Part shown: in pieces, positions 287-29,622 of the stretch
How the letters are laid out: every line of letters begins with the position of its first letter
How positions within the stretch are numbered: the stretch's first letter is position 1
NCBI GenBank assembly: GCA_023819145.1
Contig: JAMWCW010000001.1
Span: 66,400 to 130,399 of the forward strand
DNA length: 64,000 nucleotides
Direction: 5' to 3'
Source of the DNA: Candidatus Omnitrophota bacterium
GTDB lineage: Bacteria > Omnitrophota > Gorgyraeia > DTHP01
Program-made: the position numbers and the translations under genes
The notes under the pieces: model-generated
Seen by the model: the letters and a program-made list of their open reading frames with translations, nothing else
Database searches by the model: none
What the model was told of the DNA's origin: nothing

Positions 287-1210
287 GTGATGAAATTTAG
301 AAGAATGAAAATGGGGCTTGTTTTATATTTTGCTGTGGTATGGTCTTTTCTATCCGGTAGCTATCTTATCTTACCTCAAAAGAGCCAAATTATCTACGAT
401 AGGCTAAGTGCACGTAGAGTAAAAAGTGACTCTCGTTCAGATTACAATCTTACTTATTGTGCTCCTCAGTATTTTATTGATGGGATTAAAGAATTTATCC
501 CACCCTCTTATTACCCTATTGCTTGGCGGTTATATGAACATTTACGAACAGGTTATAGGGGGGAGCTGCTTTCTTCCGATTTAAGAACTGCATTTATCCA
601 ACTATTTAAGTATCATGGTATTAGGTCAATATTAGATTTGGGTTGTGGGAGGGGTAATTTTTTGTTTATGCTTCAACCTCTCGCTAAGGAAGCGGGGATA
701 GAACTGGTTGGTGTAGATTTAGAATTATCTCAAGATGTTAAAGAGAAAATGAGCAGGCTTGGTATTGAATTTTACGAGGGCGATTCCGAGGATTTAAGCG
801 AATTGGTGGGCAGGAGAAAATTTGACATTATTGTTGCGGCAGGAGTATTGGGGCAAGCTCAAATTTCTCTTTCTAAAGAAAATCTATCGCAGGCCCAAAA
901 GCAAAGCACGCATATTGCTCTTGCGGCAGTAGATGCATTAAGTAGTAATCCTTACGCAGTGTTTATTACCGCTTCAATATTCTCTTTTTTGTTTTTAGAA
1001 CGCAGTAAATTGGAAGAGATGGGTATTAGAATCGTTTATTGGAATAATGAAGAGATGAGGGTGAGAGAAGAGACGAGCTGGGATTCCATAGATGACCGCA
1101 TACGTGTTTGGTATGGGGAGAGATATTACGGGGAAGATTGTCCAAGTATTGGATTCTACAACCTATGGAACCAAAGCGCCAATGTTGCGGTTATGCAAAA
1201 ACGAAGATAG
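287..1210 (+). CDS. class I SAM-dependent methyltransferase with the N-terminal hydrophobic leader and RR motif
   Basis: Motif I is ILDLGCGRGNF, followed by VGVDLE. The start is GTG 287 or ATG 290. The leader reads GLVLYFAVVWSFLSGSYLIL, then SARRVKS with RR at nt 413-418. Confidence 0.7.
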   Translation: MMKFRRMKMGLVLYFAVVWSFLSGSYLILPQKSQIIYDRLSARRVKSDSRSDYNLTYCAPQYFIDGIKEFIPPSYYPIAWRLYEHLRTGYRGELLSSDLRTAFIQLFKYHGIRSILDLGCGRGNFLFMLQPLAKEAGIELVGVDLELSQDVKEKMSRLGIEFYEGDSEDLSELVGRRKFDIIVAAGVLGQAQISLSKENLSQAQKQSTHIALAAVDALSSNPYAVFITASIFSFLFLERSKLEEMGIRIVYWNNEEMRVREETSWDSIDDRIRVWYGERYYGEDCPSIGFYNLWNQSANVAVMQKRR

Positions 1211-1361
1211 AATCTAAAGGGAATTATTCTCTAAAAAAACATCTTAAATAGATTATGGCGTAGTTGCAGGGTTTTACTTAAAAAAAGTCTTCCCGACTAA
1301 CTGAGTTGTTGATAGTTCGTCTTTCTTAATTTTTGTTAAGATTAGAGGGGGGATTCTAACT

Positions 1362-2210
1362 TTATTTTTTGCCACGCTCGGCAAGGATTTTATCCCAGAC
1401 CTCTCTTTGATATTGAGTGAAAAGTTCGTAAAGTCTTGACTCTAAAACTTTTCTTTCCCCTTCTTCGCTCCATAGTCTATAACTTTCCGAACAGAGCTTA
1501 AAAGCAATCATTAAAAGCTCATATTTATAACCTAATACTTCTCTTAAACGCTGCTCCTCTTTTTTTAGAGATTCTTCTAATTTTTCGTAGTCAATATTTA
1601 TCGCTTCATAATCAATTAAATAACCATCCTCGCCGGTTTTAGGATTATAATTTTCTCCTTCAATCCAGTGTTTACCTACGCGTCCATCATCTGCTTGTAC
1701 TGTATCCCGCGTATAGTCTATACCCCAGCTTTTGAGCTTAGGTAAAAACGGGGGGAGGGGCCTATATTTTTCTGCTTCTCCTGTCCAGGGATTCTGTACC
1801 CATCCGGAAGGAGGAGAGTCTTCCCTTCCTTCTGCATATTGATAGATATAGCAACCATCTTGGTAAAGGGTAAGAATATAAGGGACGTTTCTTGCTGGCA
1901 CTTCTCCCGTTAAGAACCAGTATTCATTCAAAAGAGCGCAAATAAGATGAATTTTATCTCCCCCTTTTGACTTGGCAATTAACAATAAAGGAGGACTAAA
2001 TTTTACTCCTTTAAGTTCTTCTATCTCAATAAAATCAACCTGCCCAACGCGCCAATTATTTGCTGCTTCGCGTATTTCTTCGGTGGTGATAAACGAGGGA
2101 TGAGTTTTTATTCTGCGTAGAGAAGAATAAGAGAGAGGTTCTATAAAGATAAAAAGAGCGTTAAATAATAGACTAAGCAAAGATAAGAGTAATAAAATTC
2201 TTGTTCTCAT
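1362..2210 (-). CDS. hypothetical protein with the leader and RR motif
   Basis: I chose ATG 2210 because the track start at 2276 lies inside the divergent promoter. The N-terminus is MRTRILLLLSLLSLLFNALFIFIEPLSYSSLRRIKTHP, with RR at nt 2112-2117. I recognise no domain. Confidence 0.6.
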   Translation of the reverse strand: MRTRILLLLSLLSLLFNALFIFIEPLSYSSLRRIKTHPSFITTEEIREAANNWRVGQVDFIEIEELKGVKFSPPLLLIAKSKGGDKIHLICALLNEYWFLTGEVPARNVPYILTLYQDGCYIYQYAEGREDSPPSGWVQNPWTGEAEKYRPLPPFLPKLKSWGIDYTRDTVQADDGRVGKHWIEGENYNPKTGEDGYLIDYEAINIDYEKLEESLKKEEQRLREVLGYKYELLMIAFKLCSESYRLWSEEGERKVLESRLYELFTQYQREVWDKILAERGKK

Positions 2211-2226
2211 TTTTCTTCCCTGAGAA

Positions 2227-2255
2227 AATATAACACCTAATTTACCTAGCGTCAA
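2227..2255 (-). promoter_or_regulatory. minus-strand promoter cccTTGACG-N17-TATATT for the 1362-2210 gene
   Basis: The reverse complement of 2227-2258 reads cccTTGACGctaggtaaattaggtgtTATATT. The -35 is the complement of 2250-2255 and the -10 is the complement of 2227-2232. Confidence 0.5.
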
Positions 2256-2262
2256 GGGACAC

Positions 2263-2291
2263 TTGACGATTTGCAAAAAGCGTGTTATATT
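2263..2291 (+). promoter_or_regulatory. promoter TTGACG-N17-TATATT for the PGK gene (copy A of a duplicated cassette)
   Basis: TTGACG at 2263-2268 and TATATT at 2286-2291. The 29 nt at 2262-2290 are identical to 3915-3943. Confidence 0.6.
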
Positions 2292-2399
2292 TTAAACGAA
2301 ACTAAAATTCCTTTATCTAAGGATGCGGTAACTAATCTTTCCTTTAAGCTTAAATTTAGAACCCCTATAATTAAATACATAAAGAAGGTGTTTATACAA

Positions 2400-3785
2400 A
2401 TGTTATTGGTGAGGTTATTTTTGCTATTTGTTTTTGGTTTAGATGTATTATTTAATTTTTCTTCTTATTTATCTTGCCATAATTTTCTCTACGCATTACG
2501 CAGAAGTAAGCAAAGTAATATTTTTAGCTTAGGAATTGGTTCAAAGAAGACTATCGATGATTTGGGAGATATTTATGGCAAGGTTGTTTTAGTGAGGGTA
2601 GATTTTAATGTGCCTATTAAAGATGGACTTGTTTTAGACACCTATCGCTTAGAAAGAGCAAAAGAGACAATAGAAAATTTAACTAAGCGTGGTGCGAAGG
2701 TAGTTTTGATGTTTCATTTAGGCCGACCCAAAGGAAAGATTGTTCAAGAATATAGGATAGAACCGGTAATTGCTAAGTTTAGTGAAATGTTAGGCAAAGA
2801 GATTAAAATAGGTCCAGATGCCGTAGTAGGTGATGAATTAAGGGAGTTGGTTAGCAAGATGAATCCGGGGGAGGTAATTTCTTTACAGAATTTGCGTTTT
2901 CATTCCGGAGAAGAAAAACAAGATGAAGCCTTTGCGGAGGCAATTCTTAATTACACGAGGGCAGAGATTTACGTAAATGATGGGTCTGCCAATATGCACG
3001 GTAGCGACCAAGTGTCTGAAACTATCTTACCTCTCTTAATGCAGAGAAGAGGGCTTCCGACGGTTTTAGGAAAATTGGTGGTAGAAGAGTTTGGAATTCT
3101 GGAAAATTTTGTTAAGGGTGGTATAGATTTAGCCTTGTTTGGCGGTTCAAAATTTGAAAAGATTGAATCTATAAAGAATTTAGTGTCTAGTGGAAGAGTA
3201 AAAACTGTTTTTCTCTCGGGAGCAATGGCACACTTGTTCCTTAAAGCCAAAGGATTTGAATTAGGAAAGTCTAAAATTGACACAGAACTCGTGAGTGAAG
3301 CAGAAGAGATACTTGCTTTAGCCGAAAAGCGTGGCGTACGCATTGTGCTTCCTGTGGATGTGCGTTTAGATGATGGAAGTTTATTAGTTATTGCTGATAA
3401 AAAAGGAAATAAAATTGCTGATATACCGCCAGAAAGAGCCATTTGGGATATTGGAATTATTACTTTAAAAATGCTCAAAGACATGATGGAGATGATTCCT
3501 TCTTCAGGAAGAATAATTAGTAACGGCACCGCAGGATGGTTAGAAAAAGGTTTTCCTTTTGACTGGGGAACAAATGATATAAATAGAATGTTGATAAATC
3601 ATCCTGCAGAAAAATTAATTTTAGGAGGAGAAGGAGCTTTTGCTGCTTTGAATATGTTGGCTGAATATCAGGGAACACCTGAGCAGTTTAATATGACCAT
3701 TCTTACTGCAGGAGGAGCAGCACTTGCTTATCTAGCAGAAAGAGCGGATGAGCTTACGCCTTTTAATTATATTGATACGAAGTGA
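2400..3785 (+). CDS. pgk: phosphoglycerate kinase homologue with the leader and RR motif
   Basis: PGK motifs are VLVRVDFNVP and FHLGRPKG. The C-terminal motifs are divergent (LGGEGAFAA, LTAGGAALAYL). I chose ATG 2400, preceded by gaaggtg, because the track TTG 2271 lies inside the promoter. The leader is MLLVRLFLLFVFGLDVLFNF...YALRRSKQ. Confidence 0.8.
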   Translation: MLLVRLFLLFVFGLDVLFNFSSYLSCHNFLYALRRSKQSNIFSLGIGSKKTIDDLGDIYGKVVLVRVDFNVPIKDGLVLDTYRLERAKETIENLTKRGAKVVLMFHLGRPKGKIVQEYRIEPVIAKFSEMLGKEIKIGPDAVVGDELRELVSKMNPGEVISLQNLRFHSGEEKQDEAFAEAILNYTRAEIYVNDGSANMHGSDQVSETILPLLMQRRGLPTVLGKLVVEEFGILENFVKGGIDLALFGGSKFEKIESIKNLVSSGRVKTVFLSGAMAHLFLKAKGFELGKSKIDTELVSEAEEILALAEKRGVRIVLPVDVRLDDGSLLVIADKKGNKIADIPPERAIWDIGIITLKMLKDMMEMIPSSGRIISNGTAGWLEKGFPFDWGTNDINRMLINHPAEKLILGGEGAFAALNMLAEYQGTPEQFNMTILTAGGAALAYLAERADELTPFNYIDTK

Positions 3786-3793
3786 TAATGAGT

Positions 3794-3895
3794 CGTAATC
3801 CGTAAACCGTAATCGGTAATTTGTAATAAAAAATAACGAACTCAACGAAATAACCAACTAAACGAAAATAACGAAATTAACGAACACAACGAACA
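3794..3895. repeat. intergenic stuttered word array: 5 copies of NGTAAT, then about 7 copies of AACGAA
   Basis: The sequence reads cgtaat ccgtaa accgtaat cggtaat ttgtaat, then ataacgaac tcaacgaaa taaacgaaa ataacgaaa ttaacgaac acaacgaac. Confidence 0.6.
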
Positions 3896-3915
3896 AAATA
3901 TCATCAACGCAGCCC

Positions 3916-3944
3916 TTGACGATTTGCAAAAAGCGTGTTATATC
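3916..3944 (+). promoter_or_regulatory. promoter cccTTGACG-N17-TATATC (copy B), probable promoter of the 4188-18471 operon
   Basis: TTGACG at 3916-3921 and TATATC at 3939-3944. It is identical to copy A over 29 nt. Confidence 0.6.
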
Positions 3945-4187
3945 TTAATGTAGAAGAGAGGTACTTTATAAAACTTAAATTTCAATATCATAAATTAACT
4001 TTCTAGAATAAAAAGATGAGAGATTTTAATTATTTCTTTCTATTGGAAAGTGAAAAAATAGTTTCTCATTCTAAAGGGTATCAAGCCCTGATTAAAGCAT
4101 TGGAGCATGGTTTTGAAGGATTAGACAAGGAAATAGCCAAGAGGTTAATAAATTCCTATTTATATTTAAATGAAAGGAGGGAATGTA

Positions 4188-6611
4188 ATGAAAGGTTCTA
4201 AAATAAAATTTTTCTTAGTTTCTTTTTTGGTGCTTTCTTTTAGTTTTGGTTTTTCTTTTTCCGGTGATTCTTCTTTTTTATTGAGAAGACTCAGAAGTGT
4301 TCCTGTAGGTTATTTACCATCTTCAGGGATAGAAGTGGTAGATGCATTAGATGGTATGGTGAAGGTAGAGATGATTTTGCCTCAAACTTTTGAAGAGAAT
4401 CCGGCGTTAGTTCCGACATTATCGGCTTTTTTTCGTGCTTTAAGCTATAACCGCGATATAGAAATCTCAGCGATTGTATCTCCTGTTTCTGCGGAAGAGT
4501 TGGCTAGAGCCATTCAGTCAAATTATGCGTTAGGTCCGTGGAGAGGGGTTAATGTAAGTGCTGAAGGAAACACCTTAATTATAAGAGGAATGGATACAGA
4601 GGTAAGAATACCTGTTTCTACAAGTTCTACAAGATCCACCGGCGGAGCCGATGTTTCTATCTGTCTAGGAGATGTCTCCCGTGCTCCTTCGATTCTTTCC
4701 GGGAAAAGAGCGCTTTATTTTCCTGTAGGAAGCATAACAACGCAAGAAGGAATAACTGCTTTACCTGGTTCTATTGGAGAATGGGATAGTGCGGTGGTTA
4801 ATGTTTCGGAACTTACAGGTTTAGCAATAGCTTTACAAGCTCTGAGAGAAGAATTAGGAGGTTTTGGGATGGTGGGTAGAATAGATGTATTTTGTCCGGA
4901 AGGGGATATGACTATTGTGCCTTCGGCAAAAGAAGCCGATGTTTCTGATTACCTTTCTTCTTTAGGGATAACCTCCCCGGGAATGAGAGTAACTCTTCAT
5001 ACCACAAAAATATCCGGAGATATCAAAGGAGCAAGACTGGTAGGAATAGTAATTACTTTTCCCAGTAAAGTTACCAAAGAAGATTTAATAAAAATATTTG
5101 AAGCGCATCCTTTATTAGGAGTTGCTCCTGAAAAAGATTCTACTTCGGCAATGTTTACCAACCCCTATGAGACAAAACTTTTTTATCTCAATACCGGTAA
5201 GACTGTGGTAGACGAGCTAAAAGATGGTTCTACCATGATAACTCTGCGTGGTTGGGTAGGGGATTATTCTTACGCAGGAATGATGATTTCTGCCATCACT
5301 GAGGTGGGACAGCGTTTGTCGGAGTTAGGTATTCTTTCTACCCAGAAGGCAAGTGTAATCTATCCGGCAGTAGAGCATCCTAAAGTTCAAGTTCTTGCTC
5401 AACCGAAGAGAGTTATGGTCAATGGGGGAGGAGGGAGAATTGGAGTAAATATTTTGAGAAGTCTTATCGGAGATCCTAATTTTGATGTGGTGGCGGTTAA
5501 CGGAGTGCGTAGTGCCGAAGCCTTGCGTCAGGGATTACTTTATGACGAAATACTAGGTCCTACGCGGGCGGTAATAGAAACCGGCAAGCAGAAGTTATTG
5601 GACGGGAGAGAGATAGAGTTTGTGACTATAAATGGCCATAAAATATATGTGTTTAATGCCCGTGAAGATGAAGAAGTGCGTCAACTTCCGTTAGGTGATT
5701 TGGGGATTGAGTATGTTTTAGAAGCAAGTGGCAATTATACTCAAACAAAGGATTTTGAACCTTTCTTTCAAGCAGGAGCTAAATATGGCTTTATCAGCGC
5801 TCCCGCAAAAGATAAAACTACTCCAGAGATTGTTCCCGGTGTAAATCCTGAAACTTTTGTAGCGATGGCAAGAGAAGGACTATCTCAAGTGGTTTCTTTT
5901 GGTTCATGTACTACAAATAATGCTGCTCCTGCCATAAGAGCAGTGCTTGATCTTTTAGAAGCAAGAGGATTGCAAGTAGAAGAGCAATTAGAAAAAGTCA
6001 CTTTAGAGACAGTTCATGCAGTAACCCAGACCCAAGCACATCTTTTACCAATTCAAATCAGAGACCCAAATAAAGAGCCTGAGAGAGCAAGAGCAGGAGC
6101 ACTTAATATTGTAGTTTCTAGTACTGGTGCAGCTAAAGTTATTCCTAAAATCATTGAAGAAATTGACAAAATGGAGGGAATAGCTTTGCGCGTGGGCAAT
6201 CCTAATGGTTCGGAATCGCAGATTTCTTTCTATTTAGATGGTAAATCGCCCGTGACCAAGGAAGAAATAGTTGCTTATTTACAAGAAAGAGCGAGAACTG
6301 ACCTCTTTAATATTTTAAGAGTAAATACTGGAGAAAAATTAGATTCCCTAGCGATAAACGGTTCAGATATTACTTCCATTGTGGAAGCTTCAACGGTGAA
6401 AGTTACTCCTCGTTATAATGATAAAGGAGAATATGTTGGCGATATGATCGTGCTTAATACTTGGTATGATAACGAATGGAGTTATACTCAACAGTACTTA
6501 AGGGGAATTATTATGTTTACCCTATTACTGGAGAACCCTGGTTTAACCCCCGAAGAACTCTTGGTGCGTAGTGACAGATTGGGTGTACATGCCTATGCTC
6601 CTATCCCATAG
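4188..6611 (+). CDS. gap: GAPDH-like protein: leader with RR motif, an N-terminal module of about 400 aa (possibly a degenerate GAPDH catalytic-domain copy), then an intact GAPDH
   Basis: The RBS aggaggg precedes ATG 4188. The C-terminal half has NGGGGRIGVNILR (Rossmann), SCTTNNAAPA (catalytic Cys) and WYDNEWSYTQ. The leader is FFLVSFLVLSFSFGFSFSGDSSFLLRRLRS. Confidence 0.8.
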   Translation: MKGSKIKFFLVSFLVLSFSFGFSFSGDSSFLLRRLRSVPVGYLPSSGIEVVDALDGMVKVEMILPQTFEENPALVPTLSAFFRALSYNRDIEISAIVSPVSAEELARAIQSNYALGPWRGVNVSAEGNTLIIRGMDTEVRIPVSTSSTRSTGGADVSICLGDVSRAPSILSGKRALYFPVGSITTQEGITALPGSIGEWDSAVVNVSELTGLAIALQALREELGGFGMVGRIDVFCPEGDMTIVPSAKEADVSDYLSSLGITSPGMRVTLHTTKISGDIKGARLVGIVITFPSKVTKEDLIKIFEAHPLLGVAPEKDSTSAMFTNPYETKLFYLNTGKTVVDELKDGSTMITLRGWVGDYSYAGMMISAITEVGQRLSELGILSTQKASVIYPAVEHPKVQVLAQPKRVMVNGGGGRIGVNILRSLIGDPNFDVVAVNGVRSAEALRQGLLYDEILGPTRAVIETGKQKLLDGREIEFVTINGHKIYVFNAREDEEVRQLPLGDLGIEYVLEASGNYTQTKDFEPFFQAGAKYGFISAPAKDKTTPEIVPGVNPETFVAMAREGLSQVVSFGSCTTNNAAPAIRAVLDLLEARGLQVEEQLEKVTLETVHAVTQTQAHLLPIQIRDPNKEPERARAGALNIVVSSTGAAKVIPKIIEEIDKMEGIALRVGNPNGSESQISFYLDGKSPVTKEEIVAYLQERARTDLFNILRVNTGEKLDSLAINGSDITSIVEASTVKVTPRYNDKGEYVGDMIVLNTWYDNEWSYTQQYLRGIIMFTLLLENPGLTPEELLVRSDRLGVHAYAPIP

Positions 6612-6644
6612 AAAATAAGATTTATTCTCGCAAAAGGAGGAATT

Positions 6645-8798
6645 ATGCGGATAAGCAATTTAGTAAGAGTTATTTTTATTTTCTTTTCTGTTCAATTTTC
6701 TCTCTTTTCTGGTGAACTCCGGAATGGAGTAATCTTAATTTCTCGTCGGGCTAAGAATCAAGAATTTTTAATAGTGTCTCCCTTTCAAAAATTACTCTCT
6801 CTTTTAGGAAACGGATTACAAACTGGTCTTAACTTTGATGAAGGGATAGAACTTTTTCGCCAGATAGAGAGATTGCGCTTGTCTGTGGAGGAAACAGAAG
6901 ATTTTTATTCTTTTATAGCGAATAATCTTGTTGATTTTTTGGTAGTTTCAGAAAGGTCAGGAATTAGAATTGACCTTCTTGATATTCGCGACCTTTTCTC
7001 GGCAGCACAGAACTATGCTTTGGGGATAAGAAGAGATGAGTTGGGATTAAATAGGGGAGGAAGGGCTCTTTTAAATAAGATGTTAAGTGTTAAAGATATA
7101 AAAATCATTGGTGAACAGCTTTTAGAAGCACTTGACTCCTCTTTTAACAATGGCAGGATTGATAAAGCTAATTACCTGAAATATAGAGAGCGTCTTGAAA
7201 TTATTACTCTGATGGCTGGACTCTGGGCAACTTCACCAGTGAGTTCTAAGAGTATGCTTAGAGCTTTAGAAGGAGGAAATACCGCCATTATGGCCGCAAA
7301 TACCCAGATGTCGGTAAGTATTCCCGGACTTATGCTTGCTTCTTTAGAATTTGGAGCTCCCCTTATGTTTGAATCGGCAATGAGTGAAGTCAACCTGCAA
7401 GACCCAAATGACCCTGCGAAAATAGCTATTGGTTATATCGGTAGAAATCCCCAGGAATTTGCGGAAGTAGTAAGATACTATGCCTTTCTTTTAGGTTACG
7501 ACCTGCCTTATGCCATTCATGCTGACCACACCACAGTAAGTAAAGATACAGCGGAGGCAATTGACTATGCTAAAAGACTTAATCAAGCACAATTATCTGC
7601 AGGATATACCTCTTTTGCTATTGATCCTTCATCTCTTCCCGCAGTGAGAGAAGATACCCAGTTAAAAACGCTCAATGCCATGGAGGTGGAAGAGTTCTTG
7701 AGGCTTGGTTTTGATGAAAGTTTAGCAAAAACTTTAGCCGCGCGAGAATTTAAAAAATTAAAAGAACTCTCTTCTATTGAAGGAATAGACGAGAGAAAGA
7801 TCAATATTCTGATGGACTATATTGAGTCACAGATTCTAGTTGCAGTTTTGAATAAAATGGGGTATGAAGATTTGATGAGCATTCCACGTATGCCTGGAAC
7901 TATTGCCCGTGCCATTGTAGAGAACGGTCCGTTTACTTCCTTGGAAGAGCTAAAAGAAATTGATGGGCTGGGTGATGATGATATTTTCTATATTGAGGGA
8001 ATAGACAATGCGGTTCTTTTGTTTGATTATTTAAAGGCTTACTTAGATTTAAAGCGGATTATTGAGATAAATATAGAATTAGCAAAATTTATTCCTGAAG
8101 AGTTTGGTTTAGAGGTGGAAGTTGGTCATATTGGAAGAGTTGATCCACTGACGGGAGAGGCGGTGATGACTACTCCTTTAGAAGCGGTAGTTTTGATTGA
8201 AGCATTACAAAGATTTGGGATAAAACCACAGCTTTTGGCGGTAAATAATGGAACAAAACACGGAATTGTCTTCATTGGGGGTAAAGAGGTTCCTACGACT
8301 GTAGATGTAAAAAGAACCGATGAAATAGCGAGCGCTATAAGACCTTTAGGAGTTTCCCTTGCTCAGCACGGAACTACTGGTACGCCTTTTGAGGTTATAA
8401 AAGATCAACTTGCGGGAAATATCCTTAAAGCCAATGTAGGAACCGAGTGGCGGAGAACTGTTTTAAGAAGCATGCCTTTGGATTTATTCTATAGAATGGT
8501 AGAGTGGACAGTGGAAGAAGAAAAAAGGAAAGCTCCAGAGAAATTTTCTGGACTTCTTCCGGTAAGAAGTTATACACGTGAACAACTGCTAAGTTCAGAG
8601 TGTCCTTACTATGCTTTAATTATTGATCCTATAAAACGGGCAATAGGAGTTTTTAGAGCTGAAATTGATAATATTTCTGGTGAGGATTTGGATTTAATTG
8701 TAGAAACAACCCGCGAAGTAGCAAGAGAGTATTTTACTGCTTTTAATGCTCTAGAGAAAGTTTGGAAGATTGTAAAGTATTTGGGTTGGGGATGGTGA
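6645..8798 (+). CDS. fba: class II fructose/ketose-bisphosphate aldolase-like protein with the leader, the RR motif and an inserted helix-hairpin-helix module
   Basis: The RBS is aggagg. Aldolase motifs are IHADHTT, GYTSFAIDPSSLP, VEVGHIG, NNGTKHG and QHGTTGTP. The insert near aa 345-455 has LKELSSIEGIDERK and LEELKEIDGLGDDD. The leader ends ILISRRAKN. Confidence 0.7.
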   Translation: MRISNLVRVIFIFFSVQFSLFSGELRNGVILISRRAKNQEFLIVSPFQKLLSLLGNGLQTGLNFDEGIELFRQIERLRLSVEETEDFYSFIANNLVDFLVVSERSGIRIDLLDIRDLFSAAQNYALGIRRDELGLNRGGRALLNKMLSVKDIKIIGEQLLEALDSSFNNGRIDKANYLKYRERLEIITLMAGLWATSPVSSKSMLRALEGGNTAIMAANTQMSVSIPGLMLASLEFGAPLMFESAMSEVNLQDPNDPAKIAIGYIGRNPQEFAEVVRYYAFLLGYDLPYAIHADHTTVSKDTAEAIDYAKRLNQAQLSAGYTSFAIDPSSLPAVREDTQLKTLNAMEVEEFLRLGFDESLAKTLAAREFKKLKELSSIEGIDERKINILMDYIESQILVAVLNKMGYEDLMSIPRMPGTIARAIVENGPFTSLEELKEIDGLGDDDIFYIEGIDNAVLLFDYLKAYLDLKRIIEINIELAKFIPEEFGLEVEVGHIGRVDPLTGEAVMTTPLEAVVLIEALQRFGIKPQLLAVNNGTKHGIVFIGGKEVPTTVDVKRTDEIASAIRPLGVSLAQHGTTGTPFEVIKDQLAGNILKANVGTEWRRTVLRSMPLDLFYRMVEWTVEEEKRKAPEKFSGLLPVRSYTREQLLSSECPYYALIIDPIKRAIGVFRAEIDNISGEDLDLIVETTREVAREYFTAFNALEKVWKIVKYLGWGW

Positions 8799-8868
8799 GA
8801 TCTTATAATTCTTCTTAGTAATTGAAGTTGTCTAAAAATTATTTGCTACTAAAGGAGGGATTGTAGAG

Positions 8869-10407
8869 ATGAGAAAAATATTTTTAGTTCTTTCTTTTTG
8901 TTTATTGTTTTTTCTATTTTGTCCTTTAAATTATAATTCTCAAGAATATTTTTCTTTCCGTAGAATTCATCGTAATCTTTTAATCACTGACCCACAACTT
9001 TTAGATGAGGCATATTTGTTGAATATCCTCCATATTGGGGGTGGATTGGGTTCCATTGTAGTCGATGCTCGTAGCGGAGAGCATATTGCGAGATTGAGTA
9101 TCTCTGGGAAAAGAATTATTAGTCGTGATGGTTTTAGCGTGCAGGATATTTTAAAAGGGATAGAAGAAGGGCGATTCGTTACTGTTACTCATCAAGAATT
9201 AGTTCAGAGGGCTCTTGAACATAGAGAGAATTGTGTGCTTGTCTTTACAGGTGGTGGAGATTCTGCGGGTATAAATGCAGTAATCAGTTCTGCAGTCCAA
9301 GGATTAAAGAAATTGAAACCAGAAATGACTGTTTTGGGTTTAAGAAACGCAGGAGCCAGTCTGGTGGTTTCTCCGGAAGAATTTCCCGAACATCTTGTTC
9401 TGATAGATGAATTATACGCTGAAGATGTTGCGGAACAGGGCAGTACTTTTTTGGGCTCTTCAAGGTATAATCCTTTTAAGAAAGCAGAAGATATGGCAAA
9501 GACTCTGGAAAACATAAAGGGTTTTGGAGCGTGGATTTCTACAGGAGGAGATGATAATCTTAAGGTTGCCCAGAGATTATCCCAGGAAAATCCGGAAATG
9601 GTGGTTTTGGCTACTGCCAAAACCATCGATGGTGATGTGATGGTTAATGGAAGAGGAGTGCAATGTTTGGGATTTGATTCAGCAGCGAAGATGTATCGGG
9701 ACGAAATTTATTCTATTGCCCAGAGTGCCAAAGCTCATGGAGAGAAAGAACAACCGCTGGTAATTGTGGTTGAGGTGTTTGGAAGGGATTCCGGAAGGTT
9801 GGCTTTTGAATCGGCGCGCCCCGATGACTTTTCCGGATTGAATGCGGAGGAAATTCGGAGACAAGTTGACCTTGCAGGAACGATAATGATCGTTGTTCCT
9901 GAGGAGAAACATGCTGACGGGACTCAAGCGACCATTGATGAATTAGTAAAAAGGGCAGAGGAAATTATTGCCCGCGAAAATGCAGTGGTAATAGTTGTTG
10001 CTGAAGGTTATCGGCCAGGAGATATGCCGGATATTGTAAAAACTTCTTCTAAAACAGATGCCTACGGACACGTTCAACTTGCCGGCATTGGTTCCGCGCT
10101 TGTTCCGGTTTTAGAAAAAAGAATTCCTAAAGCAAAAGTAAGAACCTCTCTTCTTAACTATGAAGGAAGGGGAACGCTTCCCAGCGAATACGATGTTACA
10201 TTGGGTTATAAGATTGGTTGGGAAATGGCTGAACTAATAGCCCAAGGAGTGACGGGTGGAAGGTTTGTAGGATATTTCAATGAAATGGATGCCCGTTTTG
10301 AACTGCCGGTGGTGCTGGAATTGGTGAATATCTCTAACCAGAATACCTTAGAGCTTTATCCCCGTCAAATATTAGAGAGGAATAGGGTTTTGGTGCTTGA
10401 TAGGTAA
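8869..10407 (+). CDS. pfk: phosphofructokinase, PPi-type by sequence determinants, with the leader and RR motif
   Basis: The RBS is aggaggg. Motifs are FTGGGDSAGINAVI, TGGDDN (Asp at the position equivalent to E. coli 104) and AKTIDGD (Lys at the position equivalent to 124). The leader is IFLVLSFCLLFFLFCPL...FSFRRIHR. Confidence 0.8.
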   Translation: MRKIFLVLSFCLLFFLFCPLNYNSQEYFSFRRIHRNLLITDPQLLDEAYLLNILHIGGGLGSIVVDARSGEHIARLSISGKRIISRDGFSVQDILKGIEEGRFVTVTHQELVQRALEHRENCVLVFTGGGDSAGINAVISSAVQGLKKLKPEMTVLGLRNAGASLVVSPEEFPEHLVLIDELYAEDVAEQGSTFLGSSRYNPFKKAEDMAKTLENIKGFGAWISTGGDDNLKVAQRLSQENPEMVVLATAKTIDGDVMVNGRGVQCLGFDSAAKMYRDEIYSIAQSAKAHGEKEQPLVIVVEVFGRDSGRLAFESARPDDFSGLNAEEIRRQVDLAGTIMIVVPEEKHADGTQATIDELVKRAEEIIARENAVVIVVAEGYRPGDMPDIVKTSSKTDAYGHVQLAGIGSALVPVLEKRIPKAKVRTSLLNYEGRGTLPSEYDVTLGYKIGWEMAELIAQGVTGGRFVGYFNEMDARFELPVVLELVNISNQNTLELYPRQILERNRVLVLDR

Positions 10408-10461
10408 AGAGATAACTTATTTTATTTGGCATTTTTAAAACAAATAGGTTTCTGAGTATTT

Positions 10462-11253
10462 GTGCGATATTTAATAATAAGAAAAATAGTAATTATTTTA
10501 TTTTTTTTGGCTCTTTCTCAGACAATAGTATTTTCTCCGGTGTATGCTCGCAGAGTGAAGTGGTTTGGGGGTGAGTTATCACTTCTTCAAGAAAATAATT
10601 TTTTTGTAGGGCTGGAAGATAGTTTGAAAGAGTTTGTTATTAAATTCGAGGATGCCAGAGTAATAAAATCTATCTCTCAGCCAGAGCCATTAGAAGGGGA
10701 TGCCCCTTTTGATTCCGGAGAAAAGATAGTTACCTATAAAATTGAGGTTTTGACAGATAAAGGGGTTAGCAGTTTAGTAGTGAAATTGGTAAGTAGCAGA
10801 GAAGCAAAAAATTTCTTAACTGCTTCTTTAAGGGGTGTTTCTCCAGGTCCAGCGATTTTTGTAGAACAGGGGTGGGAGAACAGAAATGGCGTTAGCGAAG
10901 GTTATTTAATCTATCGGTTCTTTGAAGGAGTGAAGTTAAGCGAAATTTGTAATCAGGAACAGGCAATTGATATCCTAAAGAATAATCTTTGGATTATTGA
11001 AGAATTAGGTATTAAACTTGCGAATTTAAAGAAAGCAGGGGTAAAATATAGAGATTTTTTATATTATAATACGCTTATTGATTTAGAAAAGAGAGCTCTT
11101 GTGATTGTTGATTACGGTGATAGGCATTGCGCTGATCCCTTTATTCAGGTAAGAGATTGGTGGTTGCCTTTGATGTTCAATACTGAACCCGAGATATTAG
11201 AGAAAGTTATTAGTTTATTTGTAGAAGTTTATCAGAGAGAATTAAATAATTAA
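10462..11253 (+). CDS. protein-kinase-like fold protein (RIO/Kdo/APH-like) with the leader and RR motif
   Basis: YRDFLYYNTLI resembles the HRD..N catalytic loop and IVDYGD resembles DFG. The start is GTG with a weak RBS. The leader is IVIILFFLALSQTIVFSPVYARRVKW. Confidence 0.45.
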   Translation: MRYLIIRKIVIILFFLALSQTIVFSPVYARRVKWFGGELSLLQENNFFVGLEDSLKEFVIKFEDARVIKSISQPEPLEGDAPFDSGEKIVTYKIEVLTDKGVSSLVVKLVSSREAKNFLTASLRGVSPGPAIFVEQGWENRNGVSEGYLIYRFFEGVKLSEICNQEQAIDILKNNLWIIEELGIKLANLKKAGVKYRDFLYYNTLIDLEKRALVIVDYGDRHCADPFIQVRDWWLPLMFNTEPEILEKVISLFVEVYQRELNN

Positions 11254-11325
11254 TGAGATTTGCTACTCTTAAAGAAATTATCTTGCGGCGAGAAATGATC
11301 ACAATTTTAAGGGGGAGGAAGTGAT

Positions 11326-13551
11326 ATGGGTATGAGGAAAATATTCATATTTTGTTTTATTCTCATAAAATTTGCCATCTTTTCATTTTCTTTTAATTTT
11401 TCCTCTTTAGAAATTATTGCGCATCGCAGAACTAAAATTTCTCCTTTAGTAGCAAATCATGAGTCTGTAAGGAAAGTTTTAGTAGATATTTTCTACAGAG
11501 CAGCAGGATTTCAAGGGGCTTTGCGCAGCGGAACAGCACAAGAACGGCGAGATATTTTAAACCAACCTGAGGTAAAGCGCGCTGTTTCTTTGCTCCAATA
11601 TGGTTTGAGTTTAGGAAGTACAACTTTAAGAAATCAAGTGGCTTATCTTGCTGAACGTTTAGGGATAAGCGCGAATCCCGCAGTAAATATTGGAATCTAT
11701 CAGGGAGAAGCCGAAATTTTTGATATTCTGGGAAATATCTTTATGCCTGAGGGAGATGGTTTAGTCTTTTATCAAAAAGGAACTGATAATCCCGAAACTC
11801 TTTTTAAGCCTTTTTTGGCTCGCTATGGAGCCAAAATATTTGAATTTGACCCTTACTTCGTAGAGCGCAATTCTACTCCCTCCTATTCTACAGAATTAAG
11901 CGGTTTTGAAGCGCTGATTTCTTTAGCTATTCAAGAGGGACAAAATCCGCGTTTTATCTATCTTAGCGGAAAAGGTTTAACCGAAGCGCAAGCAAGAAGA
12001 ATTTATGCTTTGGCAGAAACTTACAATCTTATAATTATTGAGGATATTACCAACGCAAACCCTACAGATTATCTACTTTCTGCAAACGATTCTCAAGGGA
12101 GAGTAATTTCCATCGGAAATTTTGACAAGTATTTAGGGGCTGCAAATCCTTTAAGTTATGCCATTGCGGGAGAAGAGATTATGCGTCTTATGGAAATTGC
12201 TATTGGCGGGATAAGTCTTCATCCCAATGCTTTTATTCAGCCGATAGTCTCGGAAATTTTAGCCCAAAACGGTATACCTTTCTCGGTAAATGTTTCCTAT
12301 AAACCCATCACTCTTTCTGAGAGTGTAAAAGCAATTCTTGCTTCAACAGGTGCAGACCAGCGCTTAAAACCCTCCATCATTAGAGAAATTCTTAAAGGGG
12401 CAGTTTCGGATATGGTGCGTATGGGAGGAGGGGTTCCTGCCGAGGAGTTCTTCCCTTATGTGGAAATTGCCCAGATTATAGAAAATATGAGCCCTGAGGA
12501 ATGGGAAAAGGTAATGGCTGGGGACCCGGCGATTAATTTAGAGTTGCGCAGTGTTTTTTGCCGGTGGCTTGAAGAAAGAGGAATAAAAGCTGACCCCCGT
12601 CAGGTTTTGGTAACCAATGGGAGCCAGCAGGGTTTGGATTTATTGGGAAGATGGGTGGGAAAAGAAGGAGTTGTTTTTGCCGAATCTCCTACCTATGTAG
12701 GAATGATTACGGGAGTTGCTCCTTACGGAGGCCTTCCTTATGGTAGAAATATTCGGCATTGGGATTTACGCACACTCACTGGATTAGAGAATTTAGAGAA
12801 AGAAATTGAAGAGAACTATCGAGGTAAAAAAATTGTTTTATATGTTACACCAAACTTTGGTAATCCTCCTTCAGGGAATATGTGGACGATTAGCGAAAGA
12901 AGGAATCTTCTGGCTTTTGCCCAGAGGATGCGCTTAAAGGGATACGATTTGCATATTGTAGAAGATGATCCTTATGGAGAACTAAATTATACTGGTCAAA
13001 GAATTGTAGATATCAAAGAGTTGGATACAAACGGAACAGTAATTTATTTCAACTCCAATTCCAAAGTCTTTTCTCCGGGAATGCGTGTGGGGTACATTGT
13101 GGCTGATGAGAAAATAATTCATGAATTTGCTTCTCTTATGGATGAAGTAGGTTCTTTTGTTCCTACACTCCCCCAACTTATTATTACTAAGTTTATCGAG
13201 ACAGGAGCGATGGATAGACATATTGAATTTTTGATTGGTGAATATTCAAAACGTGCACGGGCAATGGAAGAAGCTTTAGAGGAATTTATGCCTGAAGGTG
13301 TAACCTGGACAAAACCTGAGGGAGGGTTATTTATTACTTTAACTGTTCCCTGGGATATAGATTTTATGGCCATGCTTGAGGAGGCCAAAAATTACGCGAT
13401 TCCCTTTAACTTTGTTCCGGGTATCGCCTTTAGTGTGGATGGCTCAAGTGCTCATAAAATTCGTCTTTGCTTTTCCACAGAGTCTGAAGAAAGAATAACC
13501 TTAGGTATTAAGGCTTTTGCGGAGTTGATAAAAAAACACCTTGGCCAATAG
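11326..13551 (+). CDS. tandem class I/II PLP-dependent aminotransferase-fold protein with the leader and RR motif
   Basis: The second half has LVTNGSQQGLDLL, YVTPNFGNPPSG, IVEDDPYGEL and NSNSKVFSPGMRVGY (PLP Lys). The first half parallels it (IYQGEAEIFDIL, IIIEDIT, GNFDKYLGAANPLSY). The leader ends SSLEIIAHRRTKI. Confidence 0.75.
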   Translation: MGMRKIFIFCFILIKFAIFSFSFNFSSLEIIAHRRTKISPLVANHESVRKVLVDIFYRAAGFQGALRSGTAQERRDILNQPEVKRAVSLLQYGLSLGSTTLRNQVAYLAERLGISANPAVNIGIYQGEAEIFDILGNIFMPEGDGLVFYQKGTDNPETLFKPFLARYGAKIFEFDPYFVERNSTPSYSTELSGFEALISLAIQEGQNPRFIYLSGKGLTEAQARRIYALAETYNLIIIEDITNANPTDYLLSANDSQGRVISIGNFDKYLGAANPLSYAIAGEEIMRLMEIAIGGISLHPNAFIQPIVSEILAQNGIPFSVNVSYKPITLSESVKAILASTGADQRLKPSIIREILKGAVSDMVRMGGGVPAEEFFPYVEIAQIIENMSPEEWEKVMAGDPAINLELRSVFCRWLEERGIKADPRQVLVTNGSQQGLDLLGRWVGKEGVVFAESPTYVGMITGVAPYGGLPYGRNIRHWDLRTLTGLENLEKEIEENYRGKKIVLYVTPNFGNPPSGNMWTISERRNLLAFAQRMRLKGYDLHIVEDDPYGELNYTGQRIVDIKELDTNGTVIYFNSNSKVFSPGMRVGYIVADEKIIHEFASLMDEVGSFVPTLPQLIITKFIETGAMDRHIEFLIGEYSKRARAMEEALEEFMPEGVTWTKPEGGLFITLTVPWDIDFMAMLEEAKNYAIPFNFVPGIAFSVDGSSAHKIRLCFSTESEERITLGIKAFAELIKKHLGQ

Positions 13552-13608
13552 ATTTTTTTGTAATATTTATATCTCCCTTTGGTTATAGATAATAGGGGGG
13601 CGAGAAAG

Positions 13609-14769
13609 ATGAAGAAATACTTAAGAATTAGAGGGATATTTATTTTAGTAGTATTTGTAGTATTTTTATTTACGCTTTTGATTCCTGTAAAACATTCCTT
13701 GGCTTATCCCAGGAGTTATCCTTATTTAGTTTCTAATTCATTACCAGCTTTTTCCGCGCGAGGGTTTAATGAAGCGCTCTTAGCGCGAGTTTTGCGCGAG
13801 ATTATCATTATCTATAAATTCTTGGCTCAAATCGAAAGGGTTCTTAATGAAAGAGGAGAAAATGATTTTCCATCTTTAGGTAGGGTCATCGGAGACAGAC
13901 CTCAGGAGAGAGAAAATTCCCAAAATACTCCCCCCAAAAGAAGTAATTTAAGGGAAGAACCTGCGGGTAACCGTCATCTAGACCCAGAAAATCCTTCGGC
14001 AAAACTACCAGAAGGGTCATCTTCGTCACCTGCTGGTTCTCTAGGAAAGATAAAGATTGCGATTATTGATATTGACTCTAAGCACGCCGCAGAAGTAAAG
14101 GCGGTAATGGAAGAGACAATTCGGCGTAAGAATCCCGGGGCAAAAGTAGAAATTCGTACCATTATTCTTCCTGGCAAATGGCAAAGGGATGGTTCTAAAG
14201 CGGTGGCTACCAGTGATATTTTAGACGCTTTTGCAGAAGCCAAAGCTTGGGGCGCAAAGGTAATCAATATGAGTATTGGTGCACAAGGAGGTGTAGACGG
14301 TATAGTGCTTAGTGCCTTACGCGACCTTTCTGAAAGTGGCATTCTGGTAGTAGCGGCATCAGGTAATGAAGGTAGTTATGATGCTTGGGGGCAAGCTGGC
14401 CGATATGTCTTATCAGTGGGGGTAAGAGGTGCACCTTATTCCAATACCGCTGATTTATATGTCGATTGGGGAGAGCTTCCACCTGGATTAGAAGGCACAT
14501 CTTTTGCTGCTCCGATTATTGCTGCGGAAGCGGCTTTAGCCTGGTTAGAAAACCCTTCCCTTAACTTGGCAAGTTTGCCTTCTCAATTAGGTTCACGGGA
14601 CACAGTTTATGCCCGGAGTAATCCTCCGCAAAGAAGTTCGCAGGGGTTTCACACTTCGGCAATAGAGTTTGTAAGGCCACCTGTTGTTTTTTATACGCCG
14701 GTGGAAGAAATGCCTTTTTACGAACAGAGTTTTTATTCGCCTGTTGGCTGTTTTCCGTCTTTTTGGTAA
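13609..14769 (+). CDS. membrane-anchored S8 subtilisin-like serine peptidase
   Basis: Motifs are IAIIDID (Asp), SKHAAEV (putative His), VINMSIG, VVAASGNEGS (oxyanion Asn) and GTSFAAPIIAAE (Ser). The N-terminal helix is IFILVVFVVFLFTLLI. AYPRSY occupies the position where neighbouring genes have RR. Confidence 0.7.
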   Translation: MKKYLRIRGIFILVVFVVFLFTLLIPVKHSLAYPRSYPYLVSNSLPAFSARGFNEALLARVLREIIIIYKFLAQIERVLNERGENDFPSLGRVIGDRPQERENSQNTPPKRSNLREEPAGNRHLDPENPSAKLPEGSSSSPAGSLGKIKIAIIDIDSKHAAEVKAVMEETIRRKNPGAKVEIRTIILPGKWQRDGSKAVATSDILDAFAEAKAWGAKVINMSIGAQGGVDGIVLSALRDLSESGILVVAASGNEGSYDAWGQAGRYVLSVGVRGAPYSNTADLYVDWGELPPGLEGTSFAAPIIAAEAALAWLENPSLNLASLPSQLGSRDTVYARSNPPQRSSQGFHTSAIEFVRPPVVFYTPVEEMPFYEQSFYSPVGCFPSFW

Positions 14770-14876
14770 TTTTTGTTTGTTTTCTTCTAAATAAAGGGGA
14801 CACTTACTACCGACTCTTCATTGGTTGTAAGAAAGTAAAAGATATTAAACTTGAATTCCGAGGAGGTATTATATAA

Positions 14877-16064
14877 ATGAAAAATAGTAGAGGAAAGATT
14901 TATGTTATGTTTTTGGGTTTGTTATTTTTCTTTCTTAACTCATTATTATATTTAGACTTATCTGCGGGATGCTCTTTCCGGCGAATCAAAACTCAACCTG
15001 CCAAAGAATCTGCGCTGGTGCTTTTTTTCCACGAATTAGGTAGAGAAGATATTTTTTTAGTGGGAGGAAAAGGGGCAAATTTGGGAGAACTTTCGCATAT
15101 TGCCGGGATAAGCGTTCCCGAGGGGTTTGTAGTTACCACCACCGCTTTTCAAAAATTTTTAGATGCCAACCCTGGATTACAAGATAAAATTATCAGGATT
15201 ATAAATAGTATAGATTGGGATACCCCTTCCAGTATAAACTCTGCTGCGGAAAAGATAAAAGAAGCGGTTTTGCGTGCGAACATGCCGCGAGAGATTATTG
15301 AGATGATTAAAGCAGGTTATGGCCATTTAGAAGAGATCTCCGGAATAAAGGATGTGCCCTGTGCTGTAAGAAGTTCGGGAGTTGCTGAGGATTCTCCTAA
15401 CTTTTCTTGGGCAGGTCAATTCCGCACTGAATTAAATCAGAGGGGAATATATCAGGTTTTAGAGGCGGTTAAATTAATCTGGGCAGAGTTGTATAATCCT
15501 GATGCCCTTACCTATGGACATCAGAATGGTATCGACCCGCGCAAATTTTCTATGGGAGTGGTAATTCAGCGGATGATAAATTCAGAGAAATCAGGAGTGG
15601 CTTTTGGACTGGAGTCCGATACAGGTTTTCGTGCCAATCCCGGAGGAATGGAAGGAGTTTTTTATATTGAAGGGGTTTATGGTTTAGGTGAAGGGATGGT
15701 GCAAAATATTCAAGAACCTGATGGATTTTTGGTAGTAAAGATGCCTAATGGTGAATTTAAAATTATTGAACGCATTTTCGGTTCCAAAAGAGAACAGATA
15801 GTTTATCGGTCTGGAATGAGTGGGACAGAGAAAACTTCGGTTCCCGAAGAATGGCGTCAGAGATGGGTTTTTTCAGAAGCAGAGGTGTTAGAGATTGCTC
15901 GTGCAGTTTTTGCCTTAAATAGCCACTATAATCATCCCCAGGATGTAGAATTTGCCTGGGAAGGAGGAAAACTATACATATTACAATCACGCAATGAGAC
16001 AGTTCATGCAGATAAACCAGTAGATTTAATTGAATGGAGAAAGTTTAGAATTAACCTTAAATGA
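14877..16064 (+). CDS. PEP synthase (pyruvate, water dikinase) N-terminal ATP-grasp module as a separate polypeptide, with the leader and RR motif
   Basis: VGGKGANLGELS is the PPDK_N signature. The protein ends after the nucleotide-binding domain. The leader is VMFLGLLFFFLNSLLYLDLSAGCSFRRIKTQP. Confidence 0.75.
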   Translation: MKNSRGKIYVMFLGLLFFFLNSLLYLDLSAGCSFRRIKTQPAKESALVLFFHELGREDIFLVGGKGANLGELSHIAGISVPEGFVVTTTAFQKFLDANPGLQDKIIRIINSIDWDTPSSINSAAEKIKEAVLRANMPREIIEMIKAGYGHLEEISGIKDVPCAVRSSGVAEDSPNFSWAGQFRTELNQRGIYQVLEAVKLIWAELYNPDALTYGHQNGIDPRKFSMGVVIQRMINSEKSGVAFGLESDTGFRANPGGMEGVFYIEGVYGLGEGMVQNIQEPDGFLVVKMPNGEFKIIERIFGSKREQIVYRSGMSGTEKTSVPEEWRQRWVFSEAEVLEIARAVFALNSHYNHPQDVEFAWEGGKLYILQSRNETVHADKPVDLIEWRKFRINLK

Positions 16065-16083
16065 AAAAAGGGGGAGATAAATA

Positions 16084-18480: not shown

Positions 18481-18580
18481 ACCGACCCCACCTCGTAGGT
18501 GTCCTTTTCACTGTATTGTAAGTTGTTTTTATATGGATACTTATGTGGGACGATTTTGGCCACCTACGAGGTGGGCACGG
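18481..18580. repeat. REP-like inverted-repeat pair 1
   Basis: ACCGACCCCACCTCGTAGGTGTCC at 18481-18504 faces GGCCACCTACGAGGTGGGCACGG at 18558-18580. The cores are exact reverse complements (CCACCTCGTAGGTG and CACCTACGAGGTGG). Confidence 0.75.
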
Positions 18581-29500: not shown

Positions 29501-29501
29501 C

Positions 29502-29530: not shown

Positions 29531-29622
29531 TATTATAGAGTTTAAGGGACACCTACGCGGTGGGATAGGTTTTATTAATTATAGGAGAGTATAAAGAAGT
29601 TAACGAGAGTTAAGGAGAAAAA

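Follow-up and report, generated by a model that had tools for sequence, protein, structure and literature searches.

What does a perfect palindrome do between two divergent genes, and why should a 29-nt sequence that begins in one of its arms recur without a single change on the other side of the neighbouring gene? Both questions are raised by a 65-bp region in a 64-kb stretch of DNA (the window) from a Candidatus Omnitrophica metagenome-assembled genome, with proteins 100% identical to NCBI entries NC818_00215 and NC818_00220. The palindrome reads CGTCAAG-ggaca-CTTGACG, and its right arm opens the 29-mer CTTGACGATTTGCAAAAAGCGTGTTATAT, which lies ahead of pgk, the gene of a divergent phosphoglycerate kinase (PGK). 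The second 29-mer lies beyond pgk, ahead of a small open reading frame (ORF) and of gap, the gene of an atypical glyceraldehyde-3-phosphate dehydrogenase (GAPDH) fusion. To the left, a gene of unknown function (the divergent gene) points away from pgk. The reading that we favour, with a probability of roughly 0.7, joins three parts. Two divergently transcribed units share the 65-bp region as their control region, with two sigma-70-type promoters placed back to back in it; an ancestral duplication set copies of one promoter module around pgk; and the identity of the two 29-nt cores would be due to selection together with gene conversion or co-selection.

The region reads TTGACG-17-TATATT on both strands, matching the sigma-70-type consensus at 10 of 12 positions each. 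The promoter of the divergent gene, P(-), and the pgk-side promoter, copy 1, were the two top sites of a consensus promoter scan of 12 kb, and each also has the TG element. The promoter before the gap operon, copy 2, reads TTGACG-17-TATATC and is missing from the scan list because its -10 hexamer lacks the usual final T. An extended -10, TGT-TATAT, is present in all three, and TGn in all orthologous promoters. A at -11 and T at -7 are found in P(-) and copy 1, while the last -10 base is C in copy 2, A in the related locus L001 and C in the related locus L036. The promoters are intergenic, face a gene and keep their orthologous position in relatives. Apart from the last -10 base of copy 2, the sequence agrees throughout with three putative sigma-70-type extended -10 promoters.

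The core elements of P(-) and copy 1 do not overlap, lie on opposite strands and direct transcription apart. Their -35 hexamers are 7 bp apart (the heptamers 5 bp) and their -10 hexamers 53 bp apart. In addition to CTTGACG the two share GTGTTATATTTT, giving 32-nt arms that are 75% complementary. RNA polymerase with the primary sigma factor would start near 2220 (-), 2298 (+) and 3951 (+), which would place the starts of the back-to-back pair about 78 bp apart. Such divergent promoters may be coupled via local supercoiling, or may compete for shared upstream DNA.

Conservation was assessed in related loci, which were reached through homologues of the GAPDH fusion and PGK. In L001 (group L001-L003, L040), the GAPDH is 71% and the product of the divergent gene 60% identical, and the order is divergent gene, promoter, small ORF, gap, with no pgk. 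Its plus-strand promoter, CTTGACAATTTATAAAAAGCATGTTATAT, matches the window core at 25 of 29 positions. The two -35 elements are about 60 bp apart and the partner arm is absent, hence L001 has no palindrome. In L036 and its close relative L044, PGK is 73% and the divergent gene 50% identical, and the order is divergent gene, P(-), Pa, Pb, pgk, Pc, small ORF. Pa of L036 stands back to back with P(-) as CGTCAAG-gtttcg-CTTGACA, with a 6-nt spacer. The core Pb, CTTGACGATTTCAGAAAAACGTGTTATAC, follows about 145 bp beyond Pa and precedes pgk, and the core Pc, CTTGACGATTTTAAGAAAGCATGTTATAC, precedes the small ORF; these two match each other at 24 of 29 positions, and each matches the window core at 24 of 29. 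In L042 (GAPDH 45% identical), a Pa-like consensus promoter is preceded by a remnant inverted -35, GTCAAGatgcgTTGACA, at an inter-arm distance of about 4-6 nt (GTCAA to TTGAC is 6 nt, against 7 in the window), and a single core, CTTGACGATTTCCGGAAAGCGTGTTATAT, identical to that of the window at 26 of 29 positions, is followed by the small ORF and gap, also without pgk. P(-) is TTGACG-17-TATATT in the window, L001 and L036, and in all three exactly 16 nt separate it from the start codon, in the window the ATG at 2210. In the more distant lineages L004, L007, L009, L030 and L043 the promoter is related but distinct, CTTGACA-N3-TTTAT(A/T)AA-N3-4-TG-N-TAT.., and the small ORF is lacking.

The 29-mer corresponds to positions -36 to -8, the core of a promoter module found conserved ahead of the operon of small ORF and GAPDH fusion in one small clade of Omnitrophota. 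The parts of the module are the core (type B; search pattern CTTGACRATTT-N4-AAARCRTGTTATA), a CTTTATAAA box 42 bp downstream, a AGCTTAAATTT stretch and a TAT-N-AT box. The single core of L001 and that of L042 have their positional orthologue in copy 2, and the gap-side leaders (copy 2, L001, L042 and Pc of L036) align with 51 of 64 and 52 of 67 matched columns, while shuffled sequences reached at most 50 matches. The module of copy 1 has diverged, with the core followed by a degenerate CCTTTATCTA, an insertion of about 30 nt, AGCTTAAATTT and a TATAAT box 29 nt before the pgk start. Copies 1 and 2 are 80% identical over 55 ungapped nucleotides (15 of 26 match after the core, and 7 of 25 before it); with gaps, the whole duplicated unit spans about 115 nt in copy 1 and about 80 nt in copy 2. 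The direct repeats of the core bracket pgk at a distance of 1,653 bp. No third copy is found in the 64 kb, even with three mismatches (0.00 expected). The exact 24-mer of the core has no match in 185,579 GTDB species genomes, which means that the source genome itself is not in that collection. In JGI metagenomes, the degenerate core pattern found one locus, on a 390-kb contig of an L001-type relative, and two unrelated matches that are consistent with chance among consensus promoters.

One core without pgk in L001 and L042, and two cores flanking pgk in the window and in L036/L044: this distribution upholds the copy-paste origin that had been suggested by an earlier interpretation of the window made without database searches (the sequence-only reading). 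That interpretation had also described the 7-bp inverted repeat as perfect, taken its arms for the -35 hexamers of two divergent promoters and placed the second 29-mer in front of the gap operon. The repeat is as described, both promoters recur in orthologous loci, the 29-mer has just these two exact matches in the window, and the operon does follow, beginning with the small ORF and then the GAPDH fusion.

In an ancestor of the window genome and L036, pgk would have come to lie between two module copies, either through duplication or through single-crossover integration at the core. The L001 lineage would then probably have lost pgk by recombination between the flanking cores, an event that would yield exactly the arrangement of L001. 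A duplication or integration before the split of the window, L001 and L036 is the simplest history because L036/L044 share the bracketing, while the window seems nearer to L001 than to L036 (60% against 50% identity for the divergent gene and 73% against 58% for the aminotransferase). The search for PGK homologues returned no orthologue of the L001 lineage, which fits loss.

An upstream promoter, Pa, was also observed 120-150 bp before type-B cores: it reads TTGACA-17-TACAAT at 4572-4601 of L036 and TTGACA-17-TATAAT at 3552-3580 of L042, is reduced to a TACAAT remnant in L001 (about 9700-9720) and does not occur in the window. The core may have come to lie beside P(-) there through a deletion between the two CTTGAC elements.

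The pattern of change within the core bears on its identity. Positions C1-C6, A8-T11 (A8 is C in L044), A16-A18, C20 and T22-A28 are invariant across type-B copies, and the differences are confined to the 4-nt centre and the three R positions. Purifying selection would explain most of the 29-nt identity, keeping the -35, the ATTT...AAA flanks of the spacer and the TGTTATA extended -10 nearly invariant. The 4-nt centre is GCAA in both window copies and ATAA, CAGA, TAAG or CCGG in the others, and TATACCTTA occurs in both L036 copies and in no other lineage. Such sharing of lineage-specific states by paralogues indicates concerted evolution, which could reflect short-tract gene conversion or parallel selection on an operator. 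For a freely drifting centre in two old copies, a match at all four positions would have a chance of about 1%, a figure that is our own estimate and not a computed test.

Several points weigh against this account. The count of two 29-mers covers the 64-kb window, and further copies are possible in the rest of the source genome (the 221-kb contig and beyond). Promoter function and the start sites are deduced from consensus and conservation, and the -10 of copy 2, TATATC, lacks the canonical T at -7. On the pgk side, the leader of the window does not align with that of L036. The branching of the window, L001 and L036 is drawn from two proteins, and there may have been two independent duplications. 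Finally, gene conversion is suggested by character sharing in two genomes.

The alternative that survives best concerns AT-rich boxes within and behind the core. Box 1 is the self-complementary spacer sequence TTTGCAAA of both copies, and box 2 is CTTTATAAA. The two may form a two-site operator of a putative repressor acting on the gap and pgk promoters, and the identity of the cores would then reflect co-selection of box 1 with its regulator; we hold this to be possible, with the odds well against it. Equivalents of box 1 are TTTATAAA in L001, L007, L009 and L030, TTTCCGGAAA in L042 and TTTCAGAAA in L036 Pb; the centre changes between lineages, yet the box is self-complementary in the window, L001, L042 and L036 Pb. 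The boxes are 42 bp apart, centre to centre, in copy 2, L001, L007/8, L009, L030, L042 and L036 Pc, though the offset of box 1 from the -35 varies by promoter type. Furthermore, TTTATAAAG is rare (two occurrences in 64 kb), and both boxes would lie within the expected footprint of RNA polymerase. A blind scan of the 185,579 species genomes for the combination of -35, box 1 and box 2 recovered the gap-fusion promoter of L030 among 26 matches; the other 25 are in unrelated AT-rich taxa, as expected by chance, and the scan gave no evidence of a wider regulon.

On the other hand, L004 and L043 depart from the 42-bp spacing (43 and 44 bp, respectively), L036 has degenerate versions of both boxes, the pgk-side copies have no good box 2, and none of the fetched loci shows a further box pair ahead of another gene. 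The analysis turned up no candidate regulator: the only helix-turn-helix protein seen in the window belongs to a ROK-family gene 52 kb away, at 55988-57190, and the adjacent small ORF is predicted to form a single helix. An equally good reading of boxes 2 and 3 makes them the -35 and -10, or just the -10, of a proximal tandem promoter. Box 3 is kept as AATAT-N-ATAAA in the window, L001, L036 and L042, with its TAT-N-AT hexamer about 25-30 nt before the start codon. The spacer palindrome TTTGCAAA is nevertheless a better, if unproven, operator candidate than the 7-5-7 palindrome. A more elaborate version is somewhat more doubtful still. It holds that a lineage-variable, self-complementary spacer box (T3-N2-4-A3) and CTTTATAAA, four helical turns downstream, are the two-site operator of a putative repressor over divergent glycolytic-type enzymes with N-terminal tags (see below), and that operator-regulator co-evolution, helped by gene conversion, keeps the window cores identical. 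If this version is true, it would give Omnitrophota their first defined cis-regulatory logic.

The small ORF itself belongs to a family with five members among 5.8 billion proteins, 53-61 residues long: that of the window and those at 9834-10001 of L001, 6394-6555 of L036, 3765-3950 of L042 and 529-702 of L044. In each case it separates the type-B core from the first enzyme gene, and it occurs only in lineages with a type-B core. The family shares a LQEAxLxxExRFxxLDK-like segment, and the window member is predicted as one long helix of 60 residues (pLDDT 81). We considered the small ORF as a DNA-binding autoregulator and found no support, as it has no Pfam or NCBIfam match and is predicted as that single helix.

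Very recent duplication, without gene conversion or special constraint, would account for the exact identity over 29 nt and for the similarity that extends past the core. We consider it unlikely as the whole explanation. Identity drops abruptly to 15 of 26 positions right after the core, and the rest of the module can be matched only with indels of about 30 nt. Moreover, pgk has two flanking cores in L036/L044 as well, where PGK is only 73% identical, so that the simplest history is an old duplication.

The sequence-only reading had also offered the palindromic core as the site of a dimeric regulator, that is, CGTCAAG-N5-CTTGACG would be the operator of a dimeric transcription factor controlling both divergent units. 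The repeat is perfect over 7 bp, unique in the window (0.04 expected) and placed between two co-functional genes, and a back-to-back -35-like pair is found in L036 and, as a remnant, in L042. However, each arm has a simpler explanation. CTTGAC[AG] occurs 13 times in the window, and 11 of these sites are intergenic, each facing the downstream gene (intergenic sequence amounts to 4,944 bases, 7.7% of the window), while TTGACR-N13-16-TG-N-TA.. fits seven intergenic sites. Judged by this placement, CTTGAC[AG] is the generic -35 heptamer of the genome, which means that any two of its promoters set head to head would give an inverted repeat of 6-7 bp. The spacer length of 5 nt in the window becomes 6 nt in L036 and differs again in L042, the spacer sequences are unrelated, and in L001 the partner arm is missing though both promoters persist. 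The palindrome has no second occurrence at other promoters in the window, even with two mismatches allowed. No regulator gene adjoins the region, and no DNA-binding domain was found in neighbouring genes. We read the palindrome as a by-product of back-to-back promoter placement, since sigma-factor recognition accounts for its half-sites, its spacing varies, L001 keeps both promoters without it, it does not recur, and no regulator gene lies beside it; a dedicated operator is very improbable. It also serves as a caution against over-reading palindromes, as one made of two -35 elements needs no extra factor. Separately, the palindrome if transcribed could form a 7-bp hairpin (-10.2 kcal/mol), and a role as hairpin or terminator was rejected: it lies upstream of both inferred starts, between two gene starts, and has no T-run.

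A last alternative is that the 29-mer has nothing to do with transcription and belongs to a dispersed repeat or a mobile element; the sequence-only reading had named a common dispersed repeat as one finding that would overturn its proposal. This is hardly credible: the 29-mer is repeated exactly, and other intergenic repeat families exist in the window, yet there are only two copies, unlike repetitive extragenic palindrome (REP) or miniature inverted-repeat transposable elements, both lie 100-250 nt upstream of gene starts in the correct orientation, without terminal inverted repeats or target duplications, the position is kept in four lineages, and the genome and metagenome searches returned no exact 24-mer and one related locus.

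The coordinates of the features are collected in Table 1.

Table 1. Features of the pgk-gap locus, in window coordinates.
Feature	Position (strand)	Details
Divergent gene, 282-residue protein of unknown function	1362-2210 (-)	ORF; N-terminal hydrophobic stretch, then RR motif; no Pfam match
P(-), putative promoter of the divergent gene	2227-2256 (-)	-35 CTTGACG 2256-2250 (hexamer TTGACG 2255-2250); 17-nt spacer with TGT; -10 TATATT 2232-2227
7-5-7 perfect palindrome	2250-2268	CGTCAAG 2250-2256, ggaca 2257-2261, CTTGACG 2262-2268; two -35 heptamers back to back
Putative promoter core copy 1, before pgk	2262-2291 (+)	29-mer 2262-2290; -35 TTGACG 2263-2268; spacer 2269-2285 (17 nt, ends GTGT); -10 TATATT 2286-2291
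Box 1, copy 1	2270-2277	Spacer palindrome TTTGCAAA
Degenerate box 2 in the pgk leader	2310-2319 (+)	CCTTTATCTA; 42 bp after box 1
Rest of copy 1 module	2341-2376 (+)	CCTTTAAGCTTAAATTT, then box 3 with -10-like TATAAT 2366-2371; from the alignment and the AAGCTTAAATTT repeat
pgk, divergent phosphoglycerate kinase	2400-3785 (+)	461 residues; hydrophobic N-terminus; Pfam PGK, E = 1.1e-76
Putative promoter core copy 2, before small ORF and gap operon	3915-3944 (+)	29-mer 3915-3943; -35 3916-3921; -10 TATATC 3939-3944
Box 1, copy 2	3923-3930	Spacer palindrome TTTGCAAA
Box 2, copy 2	3964-3972 (+)	CTTTATAAA; 42 bp after box 1; about +14 to +21 of the inferred transcript
Box 3	3984-3995 (+)	AATATCATAAAT; -10-like TATCAT 3986-3991, about 25 nt before the small ORF ATG
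Conserved small ORF, first gene after copy 2	4016-4201 (+)	61 residues
GAPDH fusion, atypical	4188-6611 (+)	807 residues; signal-like N-terminus, unknown domain of about 400 residues, then GAPDH C-terminal half; Pfam Gp_dh_N, Gp_dh_C

The divergent gene has orthologues at the same position in L001 and L036, with the identities given above. For pgk, a ribosome-binding site, AAGAAGGTG, is found at 2382-2390, and its product has one close homologue (that of L036), all others being at most 40% identical. The GAPDH fusion is followed by genes for a class II aldolase-like protein (fba), a phosphofructokinase (pfk), a 263-residue protein and an aminotransferase. The enzymes of this cluster score far below the curated cut-offs of the NCBIfam equivalogs and are, on that measure, very divergent. 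No terminator was found between pgk and copy 2, and the intergenic RNA between pgk and gap folds worse than shuffled sequences (z = +1.7). Transcripts of pgk would read through into the gap operon, to which copy 2 would add internal initiation. Promoter strength would then be equal for the two genes, and so would their regulation if the boxes are operators. An Rfam search of 2150-4300 gave only a chance-level match inside pgk, and the leader folds are not more stable than shuffled ones (z = +0.72 and +0.49); on these two results, riboswitch and attenuator readings were dropped.

The stretch from the pgk stop to copy 2 (3794-3898) consists of the tandem tracts (CGTAATC) x3.9 and (ATAACGAAC) x7.1. 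The tract is absent from L036, where about 35 nt lie between pgk and the core. A 13-mer, CGTAAACCGTAAT, recurs exactly at 39111-39123, in another intergenic region of similar composition. Elsewhere in the window, CCACCTACGAGGTGGG forms three inverted pairs, at 18487-18575, 29476-29564 and 30284-30372, each 73 bp from start to start (six matches, against 0.15 expected). Two of the pairs flank an IS200-like Y1 transposase gene (29623-30276), a layout that resembles REP sequences with their associated transposase (REP/RAYT) or IS200/IS605 ends.

The chief importance of the promoters lies in the genes under them, a conserved cluster that encodes very divergent, tagged glycolytic-type enzymes, and this cluster may outrank the promoter finding in interest. 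Eleven genes at 287-18471, and also 60162-61886, encode proteins that start with a hydrophobic stretch resembling a signal peptide or membrane anchor, followed about 5-15 residues later by the motif x-RR-[IVTSA]-[KQHR]; examples are SLRRIKT, FLLRRLRS, FSFRRIHR and CSFRRIKT. The tagged proteins are a methyltransferase, the 282-residue protein, PGK, the GAPDH fusion, the class II aldolase, phosphofructokinase, the 263-residue protein, the aminotransferase, a split phosphoenolpyruvate (PEP) synthase and, at 60162, an asparaginase-like protein. The tag is conserved in orthologues of all related lineages (L001, L004, L007, L036, L042 and L043). Its possible roles are export, tethering to the membrane with the catalytic domain in the cytoplasm (by the positive-inside rule) and processing. 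The cluster also contains a subtilase (S8) gene, at 13579-14769. Literature searches on tagged glycolytic enzymes found nothing.

The cluster varies in several ways. PEP synthase is apparently split into an N-terminal ATP-grasp part (14877-16064) and a part with the phosphohistidine and PEP-utilising domains (16084-18471), each with its own tag. In L036, the gene after the small ORF (6597-8573) encodes a tagged 590-residue protein and not a type I GAPDH fusion. This protein has a Rossmann-like segment, a VSCNTT motif and no significant Pfam match, and by eye it resembles archaeal-type GAPDH. It is followed by a 49-residue ORF that looks like a remnant of the type I GAPDH C-terminus (NVYSWYDNE). 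In L001, which also has no pgk, a GlpX-type fructose-1,6-bisphosphatase (14548-16164) takes the position that phosphofructokinase holds in the window (8869-10407) and in L036. The tagged cluster may have been rewired between the glycolytic and gluconeogenic directions.

Taken as a regulatory feature, the locus is of an ordinary kind with a tidy evolutionary history; its value lies in the comparative reconstruction and the promoter consensus and not in a new mechanism. The consensus, cCTTGACr with a 17-bp spacer and TGnTATAnT, is usable for an uncultured phylum, and literature searches for Omnitrophota promoters returned nothing relevant. The reconstruction describes the apparent reuse of a whole promoter module, placing pgk, as a second gene, under shared control; the 29-nt regulatory repeat shows signs of having evolved in concert.

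Duplication or capture of promoters is already known, as is gene conversion that acts on short repeats. A functional parallel is the cggR-gapA-pgk-tpi-pgm-eno operon of Bacillus subtilis, where gap and pgk are co-transcribed, an internal promoter is present and the site of the CggR repressor overlaps the promoter and leader. The locus described here likewise has an additional internal promoter, but pgk comes first, the enzymes are divergent and carry N-terminal hydrophobic tags, and the internal promoter duplicates the one upstream. In CggR-type control, a repressor gene of the SorC/DeoR family lies upstream of gap and the operator consists of tandem CGGGAC-N6-TGTC repeats. Such an operator was rejected for this locus, with no CGGGAC in 2100-4300, no CGGGAC-N6-TGTC in the window and no SorC/DeoR-family gene.

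For the duplication itself, the rnk-citT promoter capture of the E. coli long-term evolution experiment is said to have given a second gene the same promoter through a duplicated regulatory segment. Conversion between tufA and tufB in Salmonella reportedly keeps the paralogues identical within a genome while orthologues diverge. Unlike that case, the putative conversion tract here is about 29 nt, near the minimum for homologous recombination, and the case is drawn from two genomes by their sequences.

The arrangement of the pair recalls ilvY-ilvC of E. coli, a divergent promoter pair coupled via transcription-generated negative supercoiling (PMC4469952). As there, non-overlapping promoters on opposite strands share one short intergenic region, and supercoiling coupling or competition for upstream DNA would be expected. 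Unlike ilvY-ilvC, which IlvY regulates, the pair described here is known from sequence and has no such known regulator, and its -35 hexamers are 7 bp apart, with the same heptamer on both strands making the perfect palindrome. Symmetric bidirectional promoters, in which the -10 elements of both strands coincide, starts are about 18 bp apart and RNA polymerase binds in one orientation at a time (bioRxiv 10.1101/2020.01.31.928960; PMC12825309), also combine divergent transcription with pseudo-symmetry of the promoter DNA. The Omnitrophota pair falls outside that class, as its symmetry lies at the -35 elements, its -10 hexamers are separate and its starts would be some 60 bp further apart.

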